Shown piece after piece: positions 6,461-41,651 of a stretch of DNA of 46,859 nucleotides. The translations under genes and the position numbers were made by a program. The notes below the pieces were generated by a model that had not been told where the DNA came from, did not search any database, and saw nothing but the letters and a program-made list of their open reading frames with translations. Position 1 is the first letter of the stretch. Each line of letters begins with the position of its first letter. Source of the DNA: Catajapyx aquilonaris (lineage: Eukaryota); contig KZ538797.1 of assembly GCA_000934665.2 (NCBI GenBank), forward strand, positions 1 to 46,859, given 5' to 3'.

Positions 6461-6863
6461 GTGTTCTACAGTAACTAGCAATGTTTCAAAACATGACTGG
6501 GTCTGTTACGGGAGGTTTCACTGTATTTGAAAGTAGCTACATGTTCAGGTGCATTATAGTCTGCAATGTACTCTAGGGCTGAAATGTCATTACTGCACAT
6601 TACGTGAATTATAATACCTTCAATATAATTTGCCATCATTATGCTGCTAAGCCTCTCACTTGCATTTAATATGGACTTTTGATATCCATGATGTAAATCA
6701 GATGGAGAATTTGTCACGCTACAGTACAATAATTTCTGGCACACCAGAGCTCATTTCATGTTTTTTATTATTAACTTCTGGCACAGAATGCACCAGTTTT
6801 AAAACTGCTAAATCATTCCACAAATTAAATTACTTCCAGTCACATTTTAAAGGAATAAACCAA

Positions 6864-7676
6864 TCATGAACTTCCTTCTCTGAGCACTTCCAACACATGC
6901 CCGGCCCTCTTCTTAGCTTGAGTGATACATTCAAACAGCTGCTGGTCACTAATGGGGCATCCACCTTGCTTCTCCACACAACAGACTTTGCTCTTAACAG
7001 TTGCCACCGTGATCAACCCTGATGCCGTCTGCTCTTCCTCTGCCGTTGGATCAGCCATCAACATACCGTCTACAATTGCATACGTGGATGCTACTGGCCA
7101 CTTCCCAACAGCCACCTTACTTCTCTCTGGGAGCACCTTGATATCTCCAGAAGCCAACTCATACTCAACCTGGGGAAGCTCAAGATGGTTCAGGGCAGCT
7201 ACTAGAGCAGTTACACAAGCATCGACAACAGAACCATCATAATCAGTGCAAACAATATCACAGTAAAGGCACCAGGCAAGCTTCCCCGGGTGAATGCACA
7301 GCACGGAGGTATCAATGTAGCCCGAGCTGTTGACAATGTCCAAGACCAGCTGGCTCACAACCTGTGCCTTGTCGCCAGGCGGGCCAGGCTTGAACTGCTG
7401 GGAGCACATTGGGGTGAGGTCGACGTTTGGGACGAAGTATCCCCTGTTGGGCTCTTCCGCCTTGGGAGCAGCCAGTTCCAGCTTGACCCCGCACACCACT
7501 GAGGTGCTCCCTTGCCTCACAGTGCTGGAGGAATCCGCCGTGGTGATGGCCATGGTTGGCACAACCACCACTTTGCGGGCATCCATCATGCTGCGGCCAT
7601 CAGGCCGGATCTCTTGATCCAAGTGGCTGCGGTAGTACTCCACAGGGTGGATAGCCTTGTACTCAGCCGACGACAT
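6864..7676 (-). CDS. EXOSC8: Exosome complex component RRP43 (RNase PH-like), 270 aa, intronless CDS
   Basis: HPVEYYRSHL, RPDGR, ADSSSTVRQGSTSVVCGVKLEL, GKLAWCLYCDIVC..DG, DPTAEEE motifs; ATG at 7676 in AAAATG context; 60-nt GT-AG 5'UTR intron 7702-7761. Confidence 0.93.
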   Translation of the reverse strand: MSSAEYKAIHPVEYYRSHLDQEIRPDGRSMMDARKVVVVPTMAITTADSSSTVRQGSTSVVCGVKLELAAPKAEEPNRGYFVPNVDLTPMCSQQFKPGPPGDKAQVVSQLVLDIVNSSGYIDTSVLCIHPGKLAWCLYCDIVCTDYDGSVVDACVTALVAALNHLELPQVEYELASGDIKVLPERSKVAVGKWPVASTYAIVDGMLMADPTAEEEQTASGLITVATVKSKVCCVEKQGGCPISDQQLFECITQAKKRAGHVLEVLREGSS

Positions 7677-7789
7677 TTTGTAGCTGGACACCGGCAATTA
7701 CCTATGCAGATAAATAGATGAGAACAGTTTCAAATAATTGCAAAGAGAAACATGTGCTTACCTCCTCTGGCTTATTGATGGCCGACATG

Positions 7790-8130
7790 GACCGAATGCA
7801 ACGTAGCAGCTTATTGAATTTGAGTTACATCTTTTTGTAAAGTTGAGGTTCTCATGAGCTCGGAATTTTGCATTGTGTGAGATTACATGCCTCTTTGCAG
7901 GATTTTGCAGAAGATCGATGCTTTTTGGAACAGTTCCATCAACATTACACCGTGGGTTTCAGCTTCCGCCATTTTGAGTCCCTGTTCCAAAAACACGCAG
8001 TAACCTTGAAGGTGGTGTTCTTTTGCATCTCCCTTTGAAAAAAGGGCTGGTTGATTAACCCCAGTGTGTTCATATTACTTATCCAGCAACCAATGTTGGC
8101 TAACACTTGCATGTCAGCTTGACATTGACC
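7790..8130. promoter_or_regulatory. Probable bidirectional promoter between EXOSC8 and LRR ORF1
   Basis: Divergent start codons ~450 bp apart; YY1-type CCGCCATTTT at ~7966-7975. Confidence 0.5.
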
Positions 8131-9570
8131 ATGGTGCGACAAAAGCAGTGCGACACACTCTACGCAACATGTCTGCGGTGCATGTTCCAGATTCTGAAGG
8201 AGGACGCAGCCACACACAATGCAAACAAACTGGCAGTCAGCAAGTGCATTCCAAGTCGGGTGCTGCAGGATCTGATCGACATGTGTGCGGAGCAGGGGCA
8301 GTCCGTGGCACTGAAGCTGCTGGGAACGTTGGTCAACAAGAGCACCTCCAGGCTGAAGCTGGCCGAGACGCTTAATGACCAGAACAGAGATACTCTGGCA
8401 GCTATACTACGGGGCACCGAGTCACTTGAGGAGATTCAGATTAAAGTAGCATACTCCAGAGATAGTGGGCTTCATGGGCACATCAACGATGCTGTGGTTC
8501 AAAATCAGCATCTGACCAGGCTCACCATGCCGACCTATGGCAATGATGATTTGTTATGCCAATTGGCTGGGCGGAAATTAACGCACCTGGACGTGTCGGA
8601 TTCACCAAATGTGTCAGACACAGGCATAGTCGCCTTCTTCAAGAAGCCCTGCCAATTAGAGGGACTGAATCTGTCACACTGTACTGTGACACCACAGACG
8701 ATGGCTGCTGTCATATCGGCCACTGGCACATTACGTCACCTCACATATGATGACCTGTTGGAGGCGTACAACTCTACAGTTTCTGGTACTACACCACCCA
8801 AATGGCCACTTACATCGATTAAAACCCGTGTACGTATACACTGGAAGCAACATCGCGTAAATATTGATCTGCGACTTGGATGTCCAAACTTAAAATCAAT
8901 TGACGCAACCTGCGTGTATTTCTCATCGTTGGACATGTCCCGAGTACAATACCCCGACATACATGAAGTTATCCTCAGGAGTGCCATGAATCTGAATGTG
9001 GATGACTTCATTTCTCGCGGGGCATGTCTGGACCGACTTGAATTGCACTTCACGGAAGAGGATCTCCCAGTAATTGACGTCCATCATGTTATCCAGTCAT
9101 GCCCACACTTGGCTGCATTGTGTCTGACCAATGTTGATCTGGAGCTAAGTCCAGACACATTTGATGTGCTAGAACTTGAATCTCTTGCATGCCTGACTCA
9201 CATCAGCTTGATCTCAAGTCACTCGGGGGAGGTTGCCTTGCCCACTACGATTGCCATGTCCATTTTGGGTACATGCCCAAACTTGATCTCTGTTGATATG
9301 GGTTTCTGCGAGACGCTTGGAGATGATGACCTCGACAAGGCCATGCAACTTAACCAATTAGCAGCTCTGGAGGAGTTTAGTTTACGTGGTGCTGGACTTG
9401 TGACAGTACCTTGTCTATGGAGATTTGTCTACCACTGCCCCAAACTGCATCAGCTATCCATGACTGCATTAAATCCTGTGGCATTGGCTGGGTTTGAAAG
9501 AATGACGTTGGAAGCTAAGGCGAAAAATTTGGACTTGCGGATCATTTCATTATTGCAAATGTATGTGTAG
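8131..9570 (+). CDS. LRR protein 1 (F-box/LRR-type repeats, N-terminal BC-box-like motif)
   Basis: 479-aa ORF from ACCATGG; repeats LTHLDVSDSPNVSDTGI, LEGLNLSHCTVT, CPNLISVDMGFCETL; N-terminal TLYATCL and IPSRVLQDL. Confidence 0.8.
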   Translation: MVRQKQCDTLYATCLRCMFQILKEDAATHNANKLAVSKCIPSRVLQDLIDMCAEQGQSVALKLLGTLVNKSTSRLKLAETLNDQNRDTLAAILRGTESLEEIQIKVAYSRDSGLHGHINDAVVQNQHLTRLTMPTYGNDDLLCQLAGRKLTHLDVSDSPNVSDTGIVAFFKKPCQLEGLNLSHCTVTPQTMAAVISATGTLRHLTYDDLLEAYNSTVSGTTPPKWPLTSIKTRVRIHWKQHRVNIDLRLGCPNLKSIDATCVYFSSLDMSRVQYPDIHEVILRSAMNLNVDDFISRGACLDRLELHFTEEDLPVIDVHHVIQSCPHLAALCLTNVDLELSPDTFDVLELESLACLTHISLISSHSGEVALPTTIAMSILGTCPNLISVDMGFCETLGDDDLDKAMQLNQLAALEEFSLRGAGLVTVPCLWRFVYHCPKLHQLSMTALNPVALAGFERMTLEAKAKNLDLRIISLLQMYV

Positions 9571-9681
9571 CATAGTAACTAATACGAGTAGCAAATCAGT
9601 AGTTTTTCAGTACTAATGCTTCCTGCACGAATATCACCTATGATGACTTAATCTGAATTTTACACTCTATTTACAGGCAGG

Positions 9682-11088
9682 ATGTCTCCCCACATTCCGG
9701 TGTCATCCCTCCGTGATTTGTGCTTGGCATTCGTCAAGTCCCGCATATTGCGCTACATTCAACGCACTGCCCATCGCCGTCAAAAATTGCCCAATCCAGC
9801 CGACCTTGTGACCCGGCGCTTCCTTCTCACTTCTCTTCCGTCAGGCATGCTGGATGACATACTGAACTCCATCCTGTCTGACTGGGATCTTGATACTCAC
9901 TGCCGCTTACATGCACTTGACATGCTTTTGGATAATTCCACCTGTCGCATCTCCCTAGGCTCATTTAGATCCGACTACCACTCACAGGTCTTAGACACCC
10001 TGGAAGATCGTACAGGGCATGGCATGCATGAAGTCTGTTTTTCCCACATTTGGCTATCACCAGATATGTTCCCAAGAGTGGACAGGCTGTTCCAGAAATG
10101 GTCGCAACTGCAGATGTTGGTTATGCGTTATGTTGCAACAGATGCTCTCCTAAAATCTATTGCTTGCTGCTGTCAAAATTTGCACCACCTTGACGTGAGC
10201 GAATCGAAAGCCATAACATCCATTGGAGTTGACGCACTTGCGTCATCAAGCTGTTGCCAGGTCCTGCGGTACCTCAATATTGGGGTTACATCGGAGTATC
10301 TGGCACCAGAATCACTCTGCACACTCATCATGAACGCTGTGAATCTGATCAACTTCCCATTGTATCAGTATACTGGACGTGTACTAAATTTGATCATTGC
10401 CAGACAACCAGATTTTCACTCCCACTTGCTGCACTTGCGCGACTTTGGCACTGATGCATTGGTGGCATCCAGCATCAGGAGTGCATGCCCGGAACTCCAA
10501 GGAATATACCTGGACACACCTGAACAGTCTGCAATTACATTTTTTACCTTAACCTCAGTCAAGATCCATCGATTTTGCACACACTGGCTTGACCCAATTT
10601 GGACCAACCCACGACCCAACTTGACTTCCCTGGAGCTAATACGTGGAAATGGGACTCTTGATCTTTCACGAATCAACTGCCCCAACCTGTCAGTGCTTCG
10701 ATGCTCCAACATCGACTCCATCCTCTGCCCTGACGTGCCTTTCCCACACCTGACCACACTGGAAATCCGATCCTGCTCCATCGGTTACCATCAAGTCCCA
10801 CACCTGCTGAAATGTCCATTACTTGAGACCTTGATGCTGGACGTTTGTTGGAACCTGGATGACGCCGTCTTGCAAGAAGTGCTGTTTGCAGATGGTTTAA
10901 GCCACCTCAAGACAATTGTGCTGGATCCTGCCCCACACCTGACACAACAGGGTCTCCAGATGCTGATTCACTTCTGTCCTGAGCTCACCCTGGTTGGGAA
11001 CCTGGACTCCTGGAATGTGAGCTCACAGGAGGTACTGGAACTCACAGAGATCCTTGACACTGCCAATCTCAATGTTGTTCTTCTCTAG
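9682..11088 (+). CDS. LRR protein 2 (BC-box/Cul2-box-like N-terminus)
   Basis: 468-aa ORF; VSSLRDLCLAFV, LPSGMLDDIL, repeats CQNLHHLDVSESKAITSIGV, LTQQGLQMLIHFCPEL; splice acceptor TTTACAG immediately upstream. Confidence 0.82.
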   Translation: MSPHIPVSSLRDLCLAFVKSRILRYIQRTAHRRQKLPNPADLVTRRFLLTSLPSGMLDDILNSILSDWDLDTHCRLHALDMLLDNSTCRISLGSFRSDYHSQVLDTLEDRTGHGMHEVCFSHIWLSPDMFPRVDRLFQKWSQLQMLVMRYVATDALLKSIACCCQNLHHLDVSESKAITSIGVDALASSSCCQVLRYLNIGVTSEYLAPESLCTLIMNAVNLINFPLYQYTGRVLNLIIARQPDFHSHLLHLRDFGTDALVASSIRSACPELQGIYLDTPEQSAITFFTLTSVKIHRFCTHWLDPIWTNPRPNLTSLELIRGNGTLDLSRINCPNLSVLRCSNIDSILCPDVPFPHLTTLEIRSCSIGYHQVPHLLKCPLLETLMLDVCWNLDDAVLQEVLFADGLSHLKTIVLDPAPHLTQQGLQMLIHFCPELTLVGNLDSWNVSSQEVLELTEILDTANLNVVLL

Positions 11089-12563
11089 TCTTTGACCCAT
11101 TGTTCTGGGTTTTATTGTTGTGTACTGTTGTGAAGAAAACCATTTTGGTGAAGACAAAATACAAACTAATGGAGTGTATTTTTGTGGCCTTGTGCAATTG
11201 CTCAGGTTGGTTTGTTGGTAGGGTAATAGGGACAGATTATAAATTATTATTTTTTTTTCCCCTCTGGCCTCAAGTACGCTGGAACCTGGATGACTGCACA
11301 AGGTTCTCAAGAAATTAAAGGAACTGTACCAAATCAAGCAAAAAGATGGAGACAACTGGTCATGGAACGATCTTCCGTGGAATGTTGGAAGATATCCGTA
11401 GCAGGACGATATTGTACAGTACCCAAAGACAGCCCCGCAAACTATTTATTTTCCTTCGTGGTGTCCATTCGGAGCAATTAAAAAAAAAAAAAAAAAAAAA
11501 AAAAACTCCAACCAGCCAACTCCCATCTTTTTGCTTTCGATAGTACATACCAAGGTACCATTCTGGATTTTAAAATATTTAAACTCAGATGAAATTACCA
11601 TCCAGAATCACACTTGGCATCCATTTGAAATGATCATGTGTTCACTGTTGTTCTTCCTACAAGTTAATAATGTTTGCTTATGTACCTGACCACTATGATT
11701 TTTTGACATTTTAAAAGTCACCCTAGTTTAAAATGTAAGTACAAAGCAATGTCTTGCATTACAACAAAAGGTGTCTCCCTTGACTTCCTGCCAGATGTTA
11801 ATGTGGACTGTTGTGAAAATACACTACACAGAAACTTCATGCCATTTGTTTTATTCACCAGCCATAATCCTAGCCGGTCACCTGTACCAGCATCAAGCAG
11901 CATACGACTCTTACGATAACGGAAAACTGAGACCTTTAACAACTGTACAGCAATAAAACAAGCAATTAAACAGCTTTCAGTGCAGTGCAATCTCATATAC
12001 TACTCTCACTCACAGTCAGTAATACATCGTTCAGATTAGAGTGCTTACGCAATACTGCTGCTATGCTGAAATACTTCTTGCAATTCACATAAAACAAAAT
12101 AATGTGACAAAAAATAAAACTTTGAAATGCTGTACACAACAAAAGCTCAATGACGTTCCACTGCACTGGCGCACAGCCTGCTCTATATTGGCTCACTGGT
12201 ACATTGATTTTGTACATTGTAGAACAGGACATTGCTGAGTATTAATTTGAATAGAGCAGCAGATAATTCCATTTCAAAATAAAAATCACAGCAATCATGA
12301 GAAATGACGCCACTAATACACTAACATCCCATATGCAGTGATGAAAAAACAAAGGAAATAAAATCAGGTGTTGCTGCCACCTAACTCCCAATAATTTTCC
12401 ATATCCCATATTGGTACAAGCCTATCACTTTGGAACTATTGCCCTACGTTGTAATTACTTCTTCCTATTACCACCCACCTCCACCTGACCATCATTGGCA
12501 ATCAGAGACAAGGCGAGGAGAAGTTAGGACATGACAAAAATTTTAATTAGGTTATCTTCCTTG

Positions 12564-14422
12564 TTATTTACCAAGTAGGACCTTTTTAACCACTTTGACA
12601 ACGTCAGAACTTTGTGGCAGGGCTGCTATCTCCAGGCTCTTAGTGTAAGGCATCGGCACGTCCACACCAGTCACGCGGATCACTGGAGCATCCAGGTCAT
12701 AAAAGGACGGGCCTGAAAACATGAATTTATAGAATTAGTACATGAAAATATAGCTACATCACATTCTTATAAGTCAATGGATTCCAGTGCACTTTCCAGG
12801 TGAAAATTTATCACAAATTTACGTGTGCCATTTGAATTGTTTCCTAAAATTGTCCAAGAGGATTACTCACTCTCTGTCAGCCTAGCACATATTTCTGCTC
12901 CAATCCCACACTGCGGCCACCCCTGCTCAACTGTGACAATGTGATGTGTCTTGGAAACAGACTTAGCGACAGTGTCCATGTCAAGGGGTCGGAGGGACCT
13001 AAGATTGATGACCTCACACTCAACCCCATCCGATCCAGCCAGTTCCTTGGCTGCATTGAGACAGGTCTCCACCGCCTTGGAGTGTGCCACCAGAGTCATG
13101 TGCTTTCCTTCCCTCTCCACCTTGGCCTTACCAATAGGTACCAAAAAGTCCTTGCTCAGTGCCTGGTCTGACATTTCAAAGGGCTGACCATACAAGATCT
13201 CATTCTCCATGAAGATAACTGGGTCAGGGTCACGAATGGATGACTTGAGTAAACCTTTGCAGTCCTCAGCAGAGTAAGGGGAGATGACCTTCAGTCCAGG
13301 GCAGTGGCTGAACCAAGCACCAAAGCACTGCGAGTGCTGGGCTGCCACACCTGCCGCTGCACCATTTGGGCCACGAAACACAATTGGGATGTTCACCTAG
13401 AACAACAACAGCAGTGTTATGTTGGTATCACACTAGGAATCCAAAAGCAATCGCCTGAGGTAACTTACACGTCCAGCAGACATGTAAAAGGTCTTGCCGG
13501 CTGAGTTGATGATCTGGTCAATGGCTTGCATGGAGAAGTTGAATGTCATGAATTCACACACAGGTCTAAGCCCTGCCTGTACAGAAAAAAACATTTAAAT
13601 AATTTCACACAGTTGGAACATAAAATAATGCTTATTCTAATGCATAGATGCAGAATTTTAATATTCAGTGGGATAAATCTGTACAGTTATCTTAGCAAAG
13701 CTATGACACAATAGTCAGTCAAGTGAATAGGTATTTCTGTACTTTAGTTCCATCAAACTCCACCAAATCAAACCCTCTTACGTACCATGGCAGCTCCAGT
13801 TGCAATCCCAGCAAATCCCATCTCAGTAATTGGAGTGTCGATGATGCGTTTATCCCCATACTTCTTCCAGAGGCCTCTTGACACTTTATATGCTCCATCG
13901 TACATGGCTACCTCCTCACCCATCAAAAAGACCCGGTCATCACGTTCCATCTCCTCGTCCAGGGCTTGATTGAGAGCATCGCGTACTGTCACCTGCAATA
14001 TCCATCAACCAGAATGAGTACGAGTTACTTAGCAACTGAATGGTCAGCACCAACCTGCTGCCCCCGGACAGCCGCAGTAGTGGACAGTCCTCTCCTGCAT
14101 AGCTGGCGTGCTGCAACCTGCATGGTACAAACAAATTCAATTGTGGAGCAGAACTGACACACTCCCTCAGTCAATCACGAGCACAAAACATGCCCTCATC
14201 ACACTACACGATCAATTACAGAGGTTCAAGGGCAAGGTCATTCAGAACACACTCCCAAATCAGGTGTTCGCGAGTTACCAGTACCCCACTATGCGCGCAG
14301 GGCCGTCCCCTGGTCAGTGCGGATCAAGGAGACTGAACGACCCTCGCCGGCAACGGTGGATCGGCCCGGAACATGCGAATTACCTTGGACAATTTGTCGA
14401 ACGCCTTCACTGCGGCCGCCAT
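12564..14422 (-). CDS. PDHB: Pyruvate dehydrogenase E1 beta subunit, mitochondrial, 363 aa
   Basis: Exons 14422-14384, 14117-14055, 13992-13786, 13576-13469, 13396-12871, 12712-12564, all GT-AG and in frame; [51 protein letters not shown]. Confidence 0.97.
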
Positions 14423-14795: not shown

Positions 14796-17700
14796 TTAAA
14801 ATCCTTCGGCCTTTGGAACTTGTAATTCCATAGACGACAATGACGGGACCAGTAGCTCCAGCTCTTCATCTGGGGAAAGAAACACTTACTGAGAATCACA
14901 GTCAGAGAAAAGACACCTAAATAAAACTAGCTAATTTTACAGTTGATTTGGCCCACACTTGGACTACAAATGGTCTCAAGATTTCCATATTGGTCAATCA
15001 GAACAGAAGTAAGCACAACCATGAACCTGCAGCTACTTGGAAGAATGTGAACTCAAGGTCAGTCAGAAATATCTATGGTCCAACACATCTTATCATACAG
15101 TAAAACCAGGGATGGAAAAAGTACCGCTTCCTTCCAAGAAGCGCTTCTTTTTTCCATGTGCAGGGATAGAAAAAGAACCGCTTACCGCCCAAAGAAGCGG
15201 TTCTTTTTCCATCCCTGAGTAAAACCATTTAAAAGCCCATTTGCATGAGCTTTCTGATAAGGAGACTGATTTCTGCACTCCCTTTAAGTCTGTTATATCC
15301 AGAGCCTCCTGTATGTCATTCTGCACTTAATTCCATTACCTCAACCAATAATCTCTTACTCAAGTTCCCACTTAGTTTCAACTTCAGGGCTGGAACTGGT
15401 TTTTGCCCTTCAAAATACTGACTTTACTGACTTTTAAGGCAAAATTACTGACCAATCACTGACCATTATTTACTGACCTTGGAACTGGGTTATAGGCAAC
15501 TATATACACAAAAAGGGGGAGGCGGAGTGGTGCTGCGGTAACGTATGCGCCCAAGAATGTTAAGGTCCCGGGTTCGATCCCAACCTGGGGACACCCCCTT
15601 CATCTCGTGCAGAGTTCAGGGTCACCTCTGGCTTCGTCTCGGGTGGTATTTCGACAAACTAAACCACCCGAAGAAGTTCACTAAAAATGGCCACAGCGTC
15701 AGATGCACTGCACCTTGCACATCCCCTCCTGTCATCTTGCCCGTGGGCCCGGGCGCTTCAACTATAATAGGTTCCAATATTGTATAATAGTTCAAAAATA
15801 AAGGTCTGTGTGATATACCCCCATTTGGGGGTGAAATCACTATCCCAGGATTATTATTATTATTATTATTATACACAAAAAAATTGCGGATTTAAAGGAT
15901 AAATTATTTTACACAATATTTTCAAGTGAAAGCTTTACTAAAATACAAATACACTCTATAGTCTACAGCCAGCGGTTCCCAAAGTGTGGGGCGCGAGACG
16001 ATTTCTGGTGGGGTGGGGAAGTTCTTGAAATTTGAAAATTTTGCATTATAAGTACCATGACCTGAAATGAGCACCATATGGCATATGCTATGTTCTAGGG
16101 ACAGGCGTGGTTGACTCGAAATTAGATTCCATTTACACAGAGTGTTTCAATTTTTTTGCCCGAACAGTTATCGGAAAATTGCACGTAGCTGCTACTTTGC
16201 AAGCAGTGACGTGCAACCTGTGATTTGTCGGAGGAAAGGGGAATGGGGAAAAAGAGGGTCACACATCCCATGGCATGTGTGACCCTCATTTTTCCAGGCT
16301 TGACCATCAATTTTCAGCGGGCAGTACGTATGCCACTTCAACCTACGATTCGCAGGGAATATTCCCCGTTCCTCCGAAAAATCACAATTCGCAAGTCACT
16401 GCTTACAAAGTAGCAGCTACGTGGAAGTTTCCGATAACTGTTCGGACAAAAAAGTTGAAACACCCTGTATATTTTAAAACGTAGTAGGCCCAATAATGAT
16501 GAGTCATACACACTCCCCTCCCCCCCCCCCAAAAAAAAAGTTCGGTGGGTCGCGGTTCAACATAGAGTGCCGTAGTGCCGAGCCTGAGCGTTATTCGTTA
16601 TTTTTGCAGTGATTCCGTAAGAATTCGGATGATTTCAAAACGCTACCTTTCCAGTCCACTAAAAATACGGACTTTACGGACTTTTTGACGAAATTACGGG
16701 AAAATACGGAGCTTGCATGGAATTACGGACTTTTACGTAAAATACTGACCGAGTTCCAGCCCTGCAACTTCCTTCGTTGTCACTTCCGAGCATATTTCCA
16801 CACCGAAATCATCCTAATTAGTTTGCAAGAGAAGACGAGGAACTGTACCTGAATCTTCACGGCTGAGAACCTCTCTTGGCGAAAAGAAGCATCCTCTGGC
16901 CAGGTATGAGTTGAGTTTGTCTGAAGCAGCTAGGATCAGTCCTGCGTATGGTGGAGAAGGTTTGAGAGGGCGACTTTGATACTCTGGGTGGAACTGCACC
17001 CCAACAAAGTAGGGATGCCCAGTGAGCTCAACACACTCCATTCGCTGTCCACTCTCATCAGTGCCCACAAAGGACAGGCCGGCACTCTCAAGGCTCTCCA
17101 CATAATCAGGGTTCACCTCATAGCGGTGGCGGTGACGTTCATCAACATAGTCAACACCACTGTACAACTGACCTGCAATGTGCAATCGGTTTATCATAAA
17201 TTCCTTGACAATGTTGCTTATATTCATATGATCTCTGACAAGTGGTTCTGGAGTTAAATTGCAGACCCAACCATAAATACCACTATACAATGGGGTTTCA
17301 CTACTGATGGGCATGATGCTCCATTATGGTGTTGGCAAAAAAGATGGCAAATCCTATCTCACTGCTGGGATCTAAGATGTTTTCCACAATGGAAAAGTTC
17401 CGCTGTTTGCAGGGAACACTCGACTAGGTGGTCCCAAGAGGACCTTAAGCTATAAATGACTAACAGGGTCATATTGACTTGAGCATCCCACACTTACACT
17501 CTGCCACAGACAGTACAGTACACAACTGCCGTTCACAAAAACCCCTTGCAGACTTACGCAAAATGCTGGTCTTTTGCTGAAACACAGTCTTTCTTCTGCC
17601 AAGCCTCATGGTCCCTCCCATGTCCCCTGGATTATGCTCAGGCATGTCCACCACCACTGGGTAGTTTGTCTTATCATCAAATTCAGTGGAGTTGGCACCC

Positions 17701-39737: not shown

Positions 39738-41442
39738 TCATTTCTTCTTCTTGGCCTTTTCTGCCTTGAGCCACTGGAAAAAGTTGCAGCTAGCATCTGC
39801 GTTTGAACTGTGTCCAACACCTCGTGGACAGCTCCAGAACTGCCTGTTGAAATTCGGTCCCTTTTTCTTGACTGTGCGCAACACACATGCTTCCCCATGA
39901 CCCTTGCACTTTGGGGGTGACTTGGGACCCGTCATGAGCATTTTCCAGGCAGCAGCCAATCCACCTTTTTCCTCCTGGGAGTCTGATTCCTCTAAATTGG
40001 CACCACTGCTGAACTCGCTACATGTGACAGAGCTGTCTGTACTGCTCTGCGAATCTGGAATTGGGTTGGCAGTACTGTCTGGATGCAATTGAAGAGGGTT
40101 TTCCACACCATCCACAGGAGATATGTCTGTTATGGTCTCCAAGTCAGCGTTTGGCATGTCACATGTGCTCAATTGAGAGCCAGTTTTAGAATCACATACT
40201 CCACTTGAGTTTTTATTGGTCACCTTCCGGAAGAAAAACTTCGATATGTCCTGCTGCTTTGCACTGCAATTGGCACTCAACTTCTGCTTCTTTGCTGGTG
40301 ACTTACGGACCCCTTGTACACTTGGCCGTTTGTTTGCTTGACTGAACATTGACACCAAGCTCTGCTGCCTGCCTGAAAACTCGGAGAAGAACTTTGTGCA
40401 ATGCCTTGGACACTTCTCTGCTTTTACCACGCGGAACCTGAATGTGGCCTGAACTGGACAGTGATCACTTCCTAGAACATCACGCAACACAATTGATTCC
40501 TCCAGCACTGACGTCATTTTTTTGTCAGCAATAATGTAGTCCAGTCTTGTACCATAGTTATTTTCACGTGCATTTAAATATGTGCACCAGCAAGTAAATG
40601 CACCAGATTCTTTTGGATGCAGGTATCTGAAAGTGTCAATGAATTGTCCAGAGAGGAGTTCATCCATCCAGCGCCTCGAAGGACTACTGTCAAACTCTTC
40701 TCGAGGATCACAGTGGTCCAGTCGAGTGTGTGAAGTGTTGATGTCCCCTAGTATTATGACATGGCTCCCACTTTCAATGAGGGCTTCAGCCCTGCGTTGA
40801 ACCAACTGGTAAAAGCGGAGTTTGAATTCAAGCCTCTCTGGGTTGTCTTGATCAGCCCGGGGGCAATACACATTAATGATGGAAAGGGTTTCTTGCGACT
40901 CCTTTGTCTGAAACTTGTGCTGGGTGACGACTGCCCTTCCTTCAGCATCCAGATGCCTAAGATCTGACTGATCAAACTCATCCGGAATGGTACCGTAGCA
41001 CCCAACAGCATCGGAGTTGGAACTGCTTGGCAATAGCCCACTGAGGCCCTCCTCCGCCTTGAAAGGTGTGGCACCATCCCGGCAGTAGGTGGCCACCCCC
41101 GAGTACCCACTCCGCTTGCGGGAAAATGCAAAGTATGAGTTGTAGCCTGGAACTGATGCCACCTCTTCATCCAGAAGATCTCCTGTGGAAGTACGGTCAG
41201 GATCACTTTTCCTGTCCTCACTGATACATCACCAATTTGAACTTACTGGTGACTTTGGTCTCCTGCAGACAAATGACGTCTGCATCCAGGGAGCGAAACA
41301 GCTCCTTCAGGCTGACGCTGGAGGCCCGCACCCCGTTGATGTTCCAGCTCACCACCCTGAAAGCACCTGGAGACAACGGGCTGCCCTGTTCGTCGCCGTC
41401 GTCTCCACACGACGTTGGCGCACTCTGCTTTTCCCACGCCAT
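39738..41442 (-). CDS. APEX2: AP endonuclease 2 (EEP domain, PIP box, GRF zinc finger)
   Basis: Exons 41442-41247 and 41182-39738 (64-nt GT-AG intron, junction ETKVT-R-DLL); SWNING, GYSGVATY, GDIN, GTRLDY, GSDHCP; C-terminal CKGHGEAC...CNFFQW. Confidence 0.95.
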
Positions 41443-41651
41443 CTTTTCCCTGAGTCCCGTCACGATGATAGCGCCATCTATTAATCAGCACAATTTAATT
41501 ATTTTGTGCAGTTATTAGTTCTGCATCCCCTTTTTTAATTGCGATTAAAACTAACAGGGTGGGCATTCGGAGGTGTTGAATGTGCATCGTCTGCCAACAA
41601 GCTGCCAACAGTGGTGACGTCACCTTCCAGCGGGGCTGATGTGGCCAAAAG
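41443..41651. promoter_or_regulatory. Bidirectional promoter between APEX2 and SSR4
   Basis: Divergent ATGs ~210 bp apart; palindrome GGTGACGTCACC (CRE core) at 41613-41624; tandem CTGCCAACA. Confidence 0.65.

Follow-up and report, generated by a model that had tools for sequence, protein, structure and literature searches.

Two adjacent open reading frames in a 46,859-nucleotide stretch of Catajapyx aquilonaris DNA (contig KZ538797.1, positions 1 to 46,859; hereafter the window) are two complete, distantly related genes whose products are probably ubiquitin-ligase adaptors, and they probably belong to one transcription unit. The explanation that we tentatively prefer, built from the sequence, is that the first frame, ORF1, would act as a skippable coding exon of this unit, its skipping from a shared leader giving rise to the mRNA of the second frame, ORF2. 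The two frames lie on the same (+) strand, 111 nt apart, and a promoter region at about 7780-8000 is common to ORF1 and to a gene placed head to head with it:

8131-9570, + strand: ORF1, 479 aa, intronless, one complete VHL-box-like/LRR module
9682-11088, + strand: ORF2, 468 aa, intronless, also a single complete VHL-box-like/LRR module, from an insect-crustacean subfamily
6864-7676, − strand: EXOSC8/RRP43-like gene with RNase_PH and RNase_PH_C domains, head to head with ORF1

The limits of both frames, and the donor, branch-like site and two acceptor AGs that an initial annotation had described between them, are all present in the sequence as it described them.

Both proteins fall into a poorly described family that comprises thousands of arthropod sequences; the records seen give it no functional name. 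At E 0.001 a profile search recovered 16,501 proteins, of which the best 150 were examined; the family profile was built from 48 of these 150, ORF1 and ORF2 being left out of it but having seeded the search. Residues 1-473 of ORF1 cover profile positions 1-481 of 494, and residues 1-468 of ORF2 cover positions 1-480. The LRR assignment of ORF1 comes from the profile and Pfam only (LRR_6, E 7e-5), while the structure model of ORF2 is an LRR solenoid (pLDDT 89) whose best fold match is FBXL2 (E 8e-11), NLRP-type and RNase-inhibitor LRRs also being among the top matches. Each protein carries near its N-terminus a match to the BC-box consensus, given in the relevant section of PMC4878042 as (S,T,P)LXXX(C,S,A)XXX-hydrophobic, and a match to the Cul2 box:

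8155-8274, + strand: ORF1 matches to the BC box (aa 9-18) and Cul2 box (aa 40-48), consensus from PMC4878042
9706-9861, + strand: ORF2 matches to the BC box (aa 9-18) and Cul2 box (aa 52-60), consensus from PMC4878042

The BC-box-LRR modules proposed in the initial annotation are thus borne out by a match at aa 9-18 in both frames; each frame also contains one further, internal BC-box match of the kind expected by chance. Among 75 full-length relatives, 47 match the BC box (4 of 75 control windows) and 47 the Cul2 box (10 of 75 control windows). The arrangement resembles that of the CRL2 receptors PRAME, LRR-1 and ZYG-11/ZER1, in which, according to the same section of PMC4878042, an N-terminal BC box and Cul2 box are followed by LRRs. 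It differs in that the relatives bearing names are ‘uncharacterized’ arthropod proteins, and in that the top fold matches of the ORF2 model are to other LRR proteins. Both proteins are probably Elongin BC/Cul2 substrate receptors.

The two proteins share 22% identity. A tree of 51 sequences, 48 of them drawn from the 75 full-length relatives, places ORF2 in a group with 17 other proteins (node value 0.996) that leaves ORF1 outside; the named members of the ORF2 group are uncharacterized insect and isopod proteins that stand alone, at 470-510 aa. Recent tandem duplication was rejected, given this identity and the fact that ORF1 and ORF2 are not each other’s closest relatives; the pair would instead be old, or put together from different subfamilies. 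No second family gene was found near any of eight paralogous loci in the 149 kb around them, several of these stretches ending at contig ends; an ORF2 search for an orthologous locus yielded none among 6572 candidates. From 40 stretches, a metagenome scan returned one locus, on a contig of 1.4 kb, where 80 residues align at 30% identity.

The 3′ end of ORF1 provides the clearest indication of a shared RNA. Neither AATAAA nor any other of 12 poly(A) hexamers occurs in the 812 nt that follow the ORF1 stop, AATAAA being absent throughout 9500-11600, whereas all six other genes scanned have AATAAA or ATTAAA 17-226 nt past their stops. The first ATTAAA past ORF1, at 11314, lies behind ORF2, within a cluster that could serve both frames:

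11158-11319, + strand: earliest plausible poly(A) signals of the entire unit (AATACA 11158, TATAAA 11238, ATTAAA 11314)

An ATTAAA at 9468 was rejected as an ORF1 signal, as it lies inside the frame and would direct cleavage before its stop. The lack of AATAAA between the frames had been remarked upon in the initial annotation; it is confirmed, and is the most informative part of that observation. Since ORF1 departs here from every other gene scanned, it probably has no 3′ end of its own, a non-canonical site being possible, and its RNA probably continues through ORF2.

Transcript evidence comes from a single sequencing run, X1, which is not on record as RNA; its five CT..AC joints in the CTP synthase gene indicate that it behaves as spliced RNA. 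Its contigs cover EXOSC8 at 6808-7377 and 7411-7703 and lie within 8236-9537 on ORF1, with a depth of 1-3 over these parts. The aligned records are blank at 7802-8235 and 9538-14311 and have no joint at 9560, which counts neither way. The run contains a fraction of 0.76 of 325 sampled words from 8131-11200, and its aligned records reach no further than 8236-9537 (42%), so that some of ORF2 seems to sit among the X1 records without alignment here. We infer every splice, start site and 3′ end of the ORF1-ORF2 unit from signals in the DNA.

Splice signals were scored with weight matrices derived from 16 introns of the window, a small set in which five introns come from RNA joints and the others were placed by reading frame or likeness. 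At the junction of the two frames, the following features are recognized:

9561-9676, + strand: putative 116-nt intron, donor 6.5 bits, acceptor 5.0 bits
9679-9680, + strand: distal AG, which joined to 9561 would give an in-frame 945-aa fusion
9714-9716, + strand: stop of a predicted 489-aa form of ORF1 after in-silico splicing 9561/9676, falling in the last exon

The donor-like AAT/GTATGT at 9561 lies 7 nt ahead of the ORF1 TAG, a branch-like CTTAAT occupies 9647-9652, and the proximal AG (9675-76, 5.0 bits) and distal AG (0.9 bits) both read CAG followed by G. The donor is the top-scoring one on the + strand in 7780-9690, and is mid-range for real donors (leave-one-out, 2.2-10.6 bits); GTATGT also begins an RNA-backed intron of the CTP synthase gene. 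Of 3000 dinucleotide shuffles of the 96-nt zone, 531 contain a donor as good, as do 133 of 976 window bins, and the 9561 donor is within chance expectation (0.14-0.18). The acceptor ranks 7th of 136 AGs in 8131-11100. An intron at 9561-9676 is plausible on these scores. A second donor at 9575, behind the ORF1 stop (9-nt spacer), was rejected at 2.9 bits, and no Rfam match was found in 7600-12600 at E 0.1. The 9561 donor sits behind the conserved C-terminal cap, so that splicing would alter the tail of ORF1 alone; in the 75 relatives the stretch following the last conserved position measures anything from −6 to 44 residues, against 7 in ORF1. In-silico splicing 9561/9676 yields exactly the ORF1 tail that the initial annotation had predicted for the proximal AG, with a 489-aa product that overlaps the ORF2 ATG by 35 nt, out of frame.

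Upstream, the shared promoter region and the neighbouring gene supply a local precedent for short leader introns:

7966-7975, strand not assigned: promoter motif that we take to be YY1-like, the sole one within 7600-9700
7702-7761, − strand: predicted 60-nt EXOSC8 5′ UTR intron, donor 8.4 bits, acceptor 10.8 bits (the intron itself belongs to the matrix training set)
8012-8086, + strand: 75-nt candidate for a leader intron of ORF1, with a weak donor (3.2 bits) and an acceptor at 4.8 bits

An X1 contig carries 17 unaligned letters past 7703, at the EXOSC8 5′ UTR intron, and this case shows that short leader introns directly before the ATG are normal here. The ORF2 acceptor lies 5 nt ahead of the ORF2 ATG. 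Candidate starts were found in five of the eight paralogous loci (none in the other three), and an AG lies no more than 10 nt before the candidate ATG in three of these five (C360, C837 and C1886, the last at only 1.6 bits) and is absent in two. A donor lies 114 nt upstream in C837 and a GTAAGT 86 nt upstream in C360; cis donors stand 60-116 nt ahead of the pre-ATG acceptors of EXOSC8, C837 and ORF2. The acceptor before ORF2 looks, if weakly, like a 5′ UTR acceptor. Were it used in a non-coding leader, either AG would give an identical ORF2 protein, and nothing would select against the second AG.

We therefore arrange the prediction as follows, the word ‘would’ applying to each step. Transcription would start in the promoter common to EXOSC8 and end at a poly(A) site downstream of ORF2. 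From a donor at about 8012, a short non-coding leader would be joined either to the acceptor at 8086 before ORF1 or, skipping ORF1, to the acceptor at 9676 before ORF2. The inclusion mRNA would contain ORF1 and then ORF2, and ribosomes would make ORF1 from it: the 479-aa form if the 116-nt intron is kept, and, if it is removed, the 489-aa form, with the variable tail exchanged and a stop overlapping the ORF2 start. The skipping mRNA would make ORF2, both AGs leading to the same protein, and a fusion mRNA would be a minor by-product at most. This arrangement accounts for the missing poly(A) signal, the position of the donor past the cap, that of the acceptor next to the ORF2 ATG, and the absence of promoter motifs, and it needs no reinitiation. 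In its favour, ORF1 has no poly(A) signal, as expected of an internal exon; the relatives of ORF2 in insects and the isopod are stand-alone proteins; and, more weakly, an AG lies near the ATG in the three paralogues and no YY1, TATA or DRE motif is found in ORF1 or the gap. Against it, the leader donor of 3.2 bits would have to span 1.66 kb to reach 9676, stronger acceptor-like sites at 7900 and 7910 (9.1 and 6.8 bits) lack both a good donor and an explanation, the 9561 donor is within chance, two of the five paralogues have no AG near the ATG, and every step is predicted with a matrix of 16 introns, only five of them RNA-backed. A shared leader exon near 8000 had been offered in the initial annotation as an alternative; it has been taken into the preferred model, its signals being weak. 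If this reading holds, a whole 479-codon frame would be a cassette exon choosing between two old paralogous ligase adaptors.

A separate start for ORF2 would agree with the Inr-like hexamers that occur at 9542, 9596 and 9607. It is possible, and nearly as likely as the skippable exon, that ORF2 has its own promoter inside ORF1: the two would be overlapping genes, with ORF2 transcription starting in late ORF1 or the gap, 9561-9676 serving as an ORF2 5′ UTR intron, and the ORF1 mRNA either ending at a non-canonical site in the gap or reading to the ORF2 poly(A) site. A length of 116 nt suits the local leader introns (60 nt in EXOSC8, 114 nt in C837, 86 nt in C360), and monocistronic mRNAs of downstream fly genes usually come from another promoter, as in CG17197/CG17198, in the portion of PMC4528330 that treats them. 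This arrangement is weakened by the lack of a housekeeping-type motif in ORF1 and of a canonical poly(A) signal in the gap; moreover, the hexamers match at chance level, and a start at 9542 would leave a first exon of less than 20 nt.

A truly dicistronic mRNA, in which ORF2 would be reached by reinitiation or internal entry, either after the 35-nt overlap of the spliced form or across the unspliced 111 nt, is unlikely. The missing ORF1 signal agrees with it, as do three upstream ATGs inside the putative intron (9616, 9640 and 9643), whose short frames close at 9649-51, 30 nt ahead of ORF2; splicing of 9561-9676 would remove all three. Reinitiation after a 480-codon frame is, however, poor in animals. 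RNA folding of the junction revealed no unusual structure (z 0.94), and TGGGA, the motif sought for such a mechanism, does not occur in 9300-9760. Fly loci speak on both sides in the sections of PMC4528330 drawn on here: those that are only polycistronic have stop-start distances of -34 to 319 nt, with CG14550/CG42498 overlapping by 34 nt, and 114 of 159 dicistronic loci also have monocistronic forms.

The initial annotation had gone further, making the two AGs a switch between a fusion and a bicistronic mRNA. Extended to the whole unit, this would become a three-way splice choice: skipping would lead to receptor 2, the proximal AG to receptor 1, and the distal AG, if the 4-nt shift were regulated, to a functional receptor of 945 aa in which two VHL-box/LRR modules are joined. 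We regard regulated use of the two AGs, and this three-way switch with it, as very improbable. The product itself is real on paper: the in-silico join 9561/9680 does give the in-frame protein of about 945 aa that had been described, with the frame open and both modules whole, and both acceptors are CAG followed by G. As a matter of arithmetic, though, any pair of acceptors 4 nt apart takes in two of the three frames, so that chance alone gives an in-frame fusion in two cases out of three, and GTs at 9492, 9507 and 9567 likewise fuse in frame with 9680. The distal AG scores only 0.9 bits against 5.0, so the two are not of the comparable strength expected of a regulated tandem acceptor, on the 16-intron matrix and by an internal control:

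13573-13582, − strand: end of PDHB intron 3, with the same TACAGGCAGG, ten letters identical to the ORF2 acceptor

In PDHB, exon 3 corresponds to residues 3-71 of human chain 3exe_B and exon 4, counted from the first AG, to residues 72-106; the frame is kept by the proximal AG, which must be the main site there. The tandem-AG motif at ORF2 is thus ordinary. Human tandem splice sites, in the part of PMC8055015 concerned, point the same way: minor sites are usually at least tenfold lower, the upstream site is favoured and 20% exceed noise, although some frame-shifting tandem sites are tissue-specific. The likeness is that two AGs lie a few bases apart with the upstream one expected to dominate; the difference is that the shift here, of 4 nt, lies between two genes, and theirs, of 3 nt, within a single coding sequence, and that those data are human.

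The family, too, consists of single modules. Of the best 150 relatives, 75 are single full modules of 437-682 aa and none has an internal second module start; a weak search among long proteins, in which 3 of 7983 and 7 of 8000 candidates passed, found no double module. In P0160 (1067 aa) the family N-terminal part is internal, at residue 435, behind an unrelated region and with no second module; P0163-P0167 were judged from coverage (26% or less) and Pfam lists alone. The proposed switch is therefore not retained: what stands of the initial annotation’s junction is a probable shared RNA, a plausible 9561-9676 intron and, as a prediction, an overlapping two-ORF mRNA. If it were true, the 945-aa protein could hold a pair of Cul2 ligases or a pair of substrates simultaneously, a layout that none of the relatives examined displays; to a specialist, nothing short of such a regulated and translated fusion would be surprising, and the present evidence speaks against one. 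A practical consequence concerns annotation, since gene-finding software could wrongly predict a single 945-aa gene in place of the pair, or overlook ORF2.

Resolution of an operon by spliced-leader trans-splicing, with the pre-mRNA cut behind ORF1 and ORF2 receiving a leader at 9677, had also been put forward, and is the most improbable of the readings considered. The 111-nt gap is close to nematode intercistronic medians of 111-112 bp, and trans-splicing is reported in copepods and amphipods, in the sections of PMC7986045 used here; the same sections report no operons in the copepods and amphipods with SL trans-splicing. The upstream gene has no poly(A) signal in the gap, where such an operon would have it polyadenylated about 100 nt before the trans-splice site, and the cis donors before the acceptors of EXOSC8, C837 and ORF2 are at hand. 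The proposal is without support here.

Loci of this type are familiar in Drosophila, and the co-expression that had been called unusual is not so for an arthropod. According to the sections of PMC4528330 drawn on here, FlyBase holds 159 dicistronic pairs and 2.5% of coding genes are polycistronic; 18% of pairs are between similar genes, most being unrelated; 130 genes have a promoter and 5′ exons in common; and in 11 of 16 ‘splice variant’ rows of File S1 the downstream gene is released by splicing that breaks up the upstream coding sequence. The stoned locus is also dicistronic (PMC3373503, in the part cited). As in fly loci freed by splicing (Xport, vnc, CG7950, CG42518 and mei-217/mei-218; PMC4528330, same sections), the two frames here lie on one strand with no poly(A) signal between them, none of the 12 hexamers occurring in the 812 nt after ORF1, and a splice removing the upstream coding sequence would free the downstream one. 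The 111-nt spacing falls within the -34 to 319 nt range, and the -35 nt of the spliced form one base outside it. Like the fly shared-promoter pairs and CG17197/CG17198 (PMC4528330, same sections), the unit could give both genes one non-coding leader, or the 3′ paralogue a promoter of its own. It differs from them in that the upstream coding exon has a donor at its end and can act as a cassette, its leader donor being a weak candidate, and from the dicistronic loci in that cDNA and RNA-seq stand behind the fly cases, and in that the upstream frame, at 479 aa, is long and shares its family with the downstream frame. By analogy, the locus is likely a further member of a layout already catalogued in flies and, if the skippable-exon reading holds, a neat case of it.

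The coding sequence of EXOSC8 (window 6864-7676) has no intron and that of APEX2 a single one (39738-41180). Coding regions with few introns are common in the window. The last intron of the CTP synthase gene (14870-16848, reverse strand) measures 1979 nt and contains repeats, which reach very high contig depth in X1, a sequencing run that behaves as spliced RNA.

A segmental triplication occupies 21400-41450, its copies 82-91% alike, introns included, and comprises genes named from their translations as SLC25A3-like and APEX2-like:

Within 21400-41450, forward strand: three phosphate-carrier (SLC25A3-like) genes
Within 21400-41450, reverse strand: APEX2-like pieces

A complete APEX2 gene seems to be present in just one copy, that at 39738-41450.

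At the 5′ end of the X1 EXOSC8 contig (7702-7780, reverse strand), 17 letters are unaligned; a cis donor of canonical type, located 60 nt further upstream, can account for them, a trans-spliced leader being a formal alternative source. Splice-site scoring of the bidirectional promoter region between EXOSC8 and ORF1 gave three strong acceptor-like sites, none with a good donor upstream:

7900, forward strand: 9.1 bits
7910, forward strand: 6.8 bits
7982, reverse strand: 9.3 bits

On the 3′ side of ORF2, the stretch at 11325-11506 has four further matches in the genome (72-74% over ~100 nt), precedes a run of 28 A and is possibly an old retroposon remnant.

Elsewhere in the genome lie further members of the VHL-box/LRR family:

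G000:C173:114918-116779, C360:25269-26824 and C632:22048-23820: module broken across two or three frames near its middle
G000:C837:14831-15619, reverse strand: donor 114 nt and AG 1 nt upstream of the ATG

The frame breaks in the first three may be short introns or frameshifts. Of the C837 member, the N-terminal half alone was recovered in 20 kb; its arrangement of donor and AG ahead of the ATG is much like that of ORF2.
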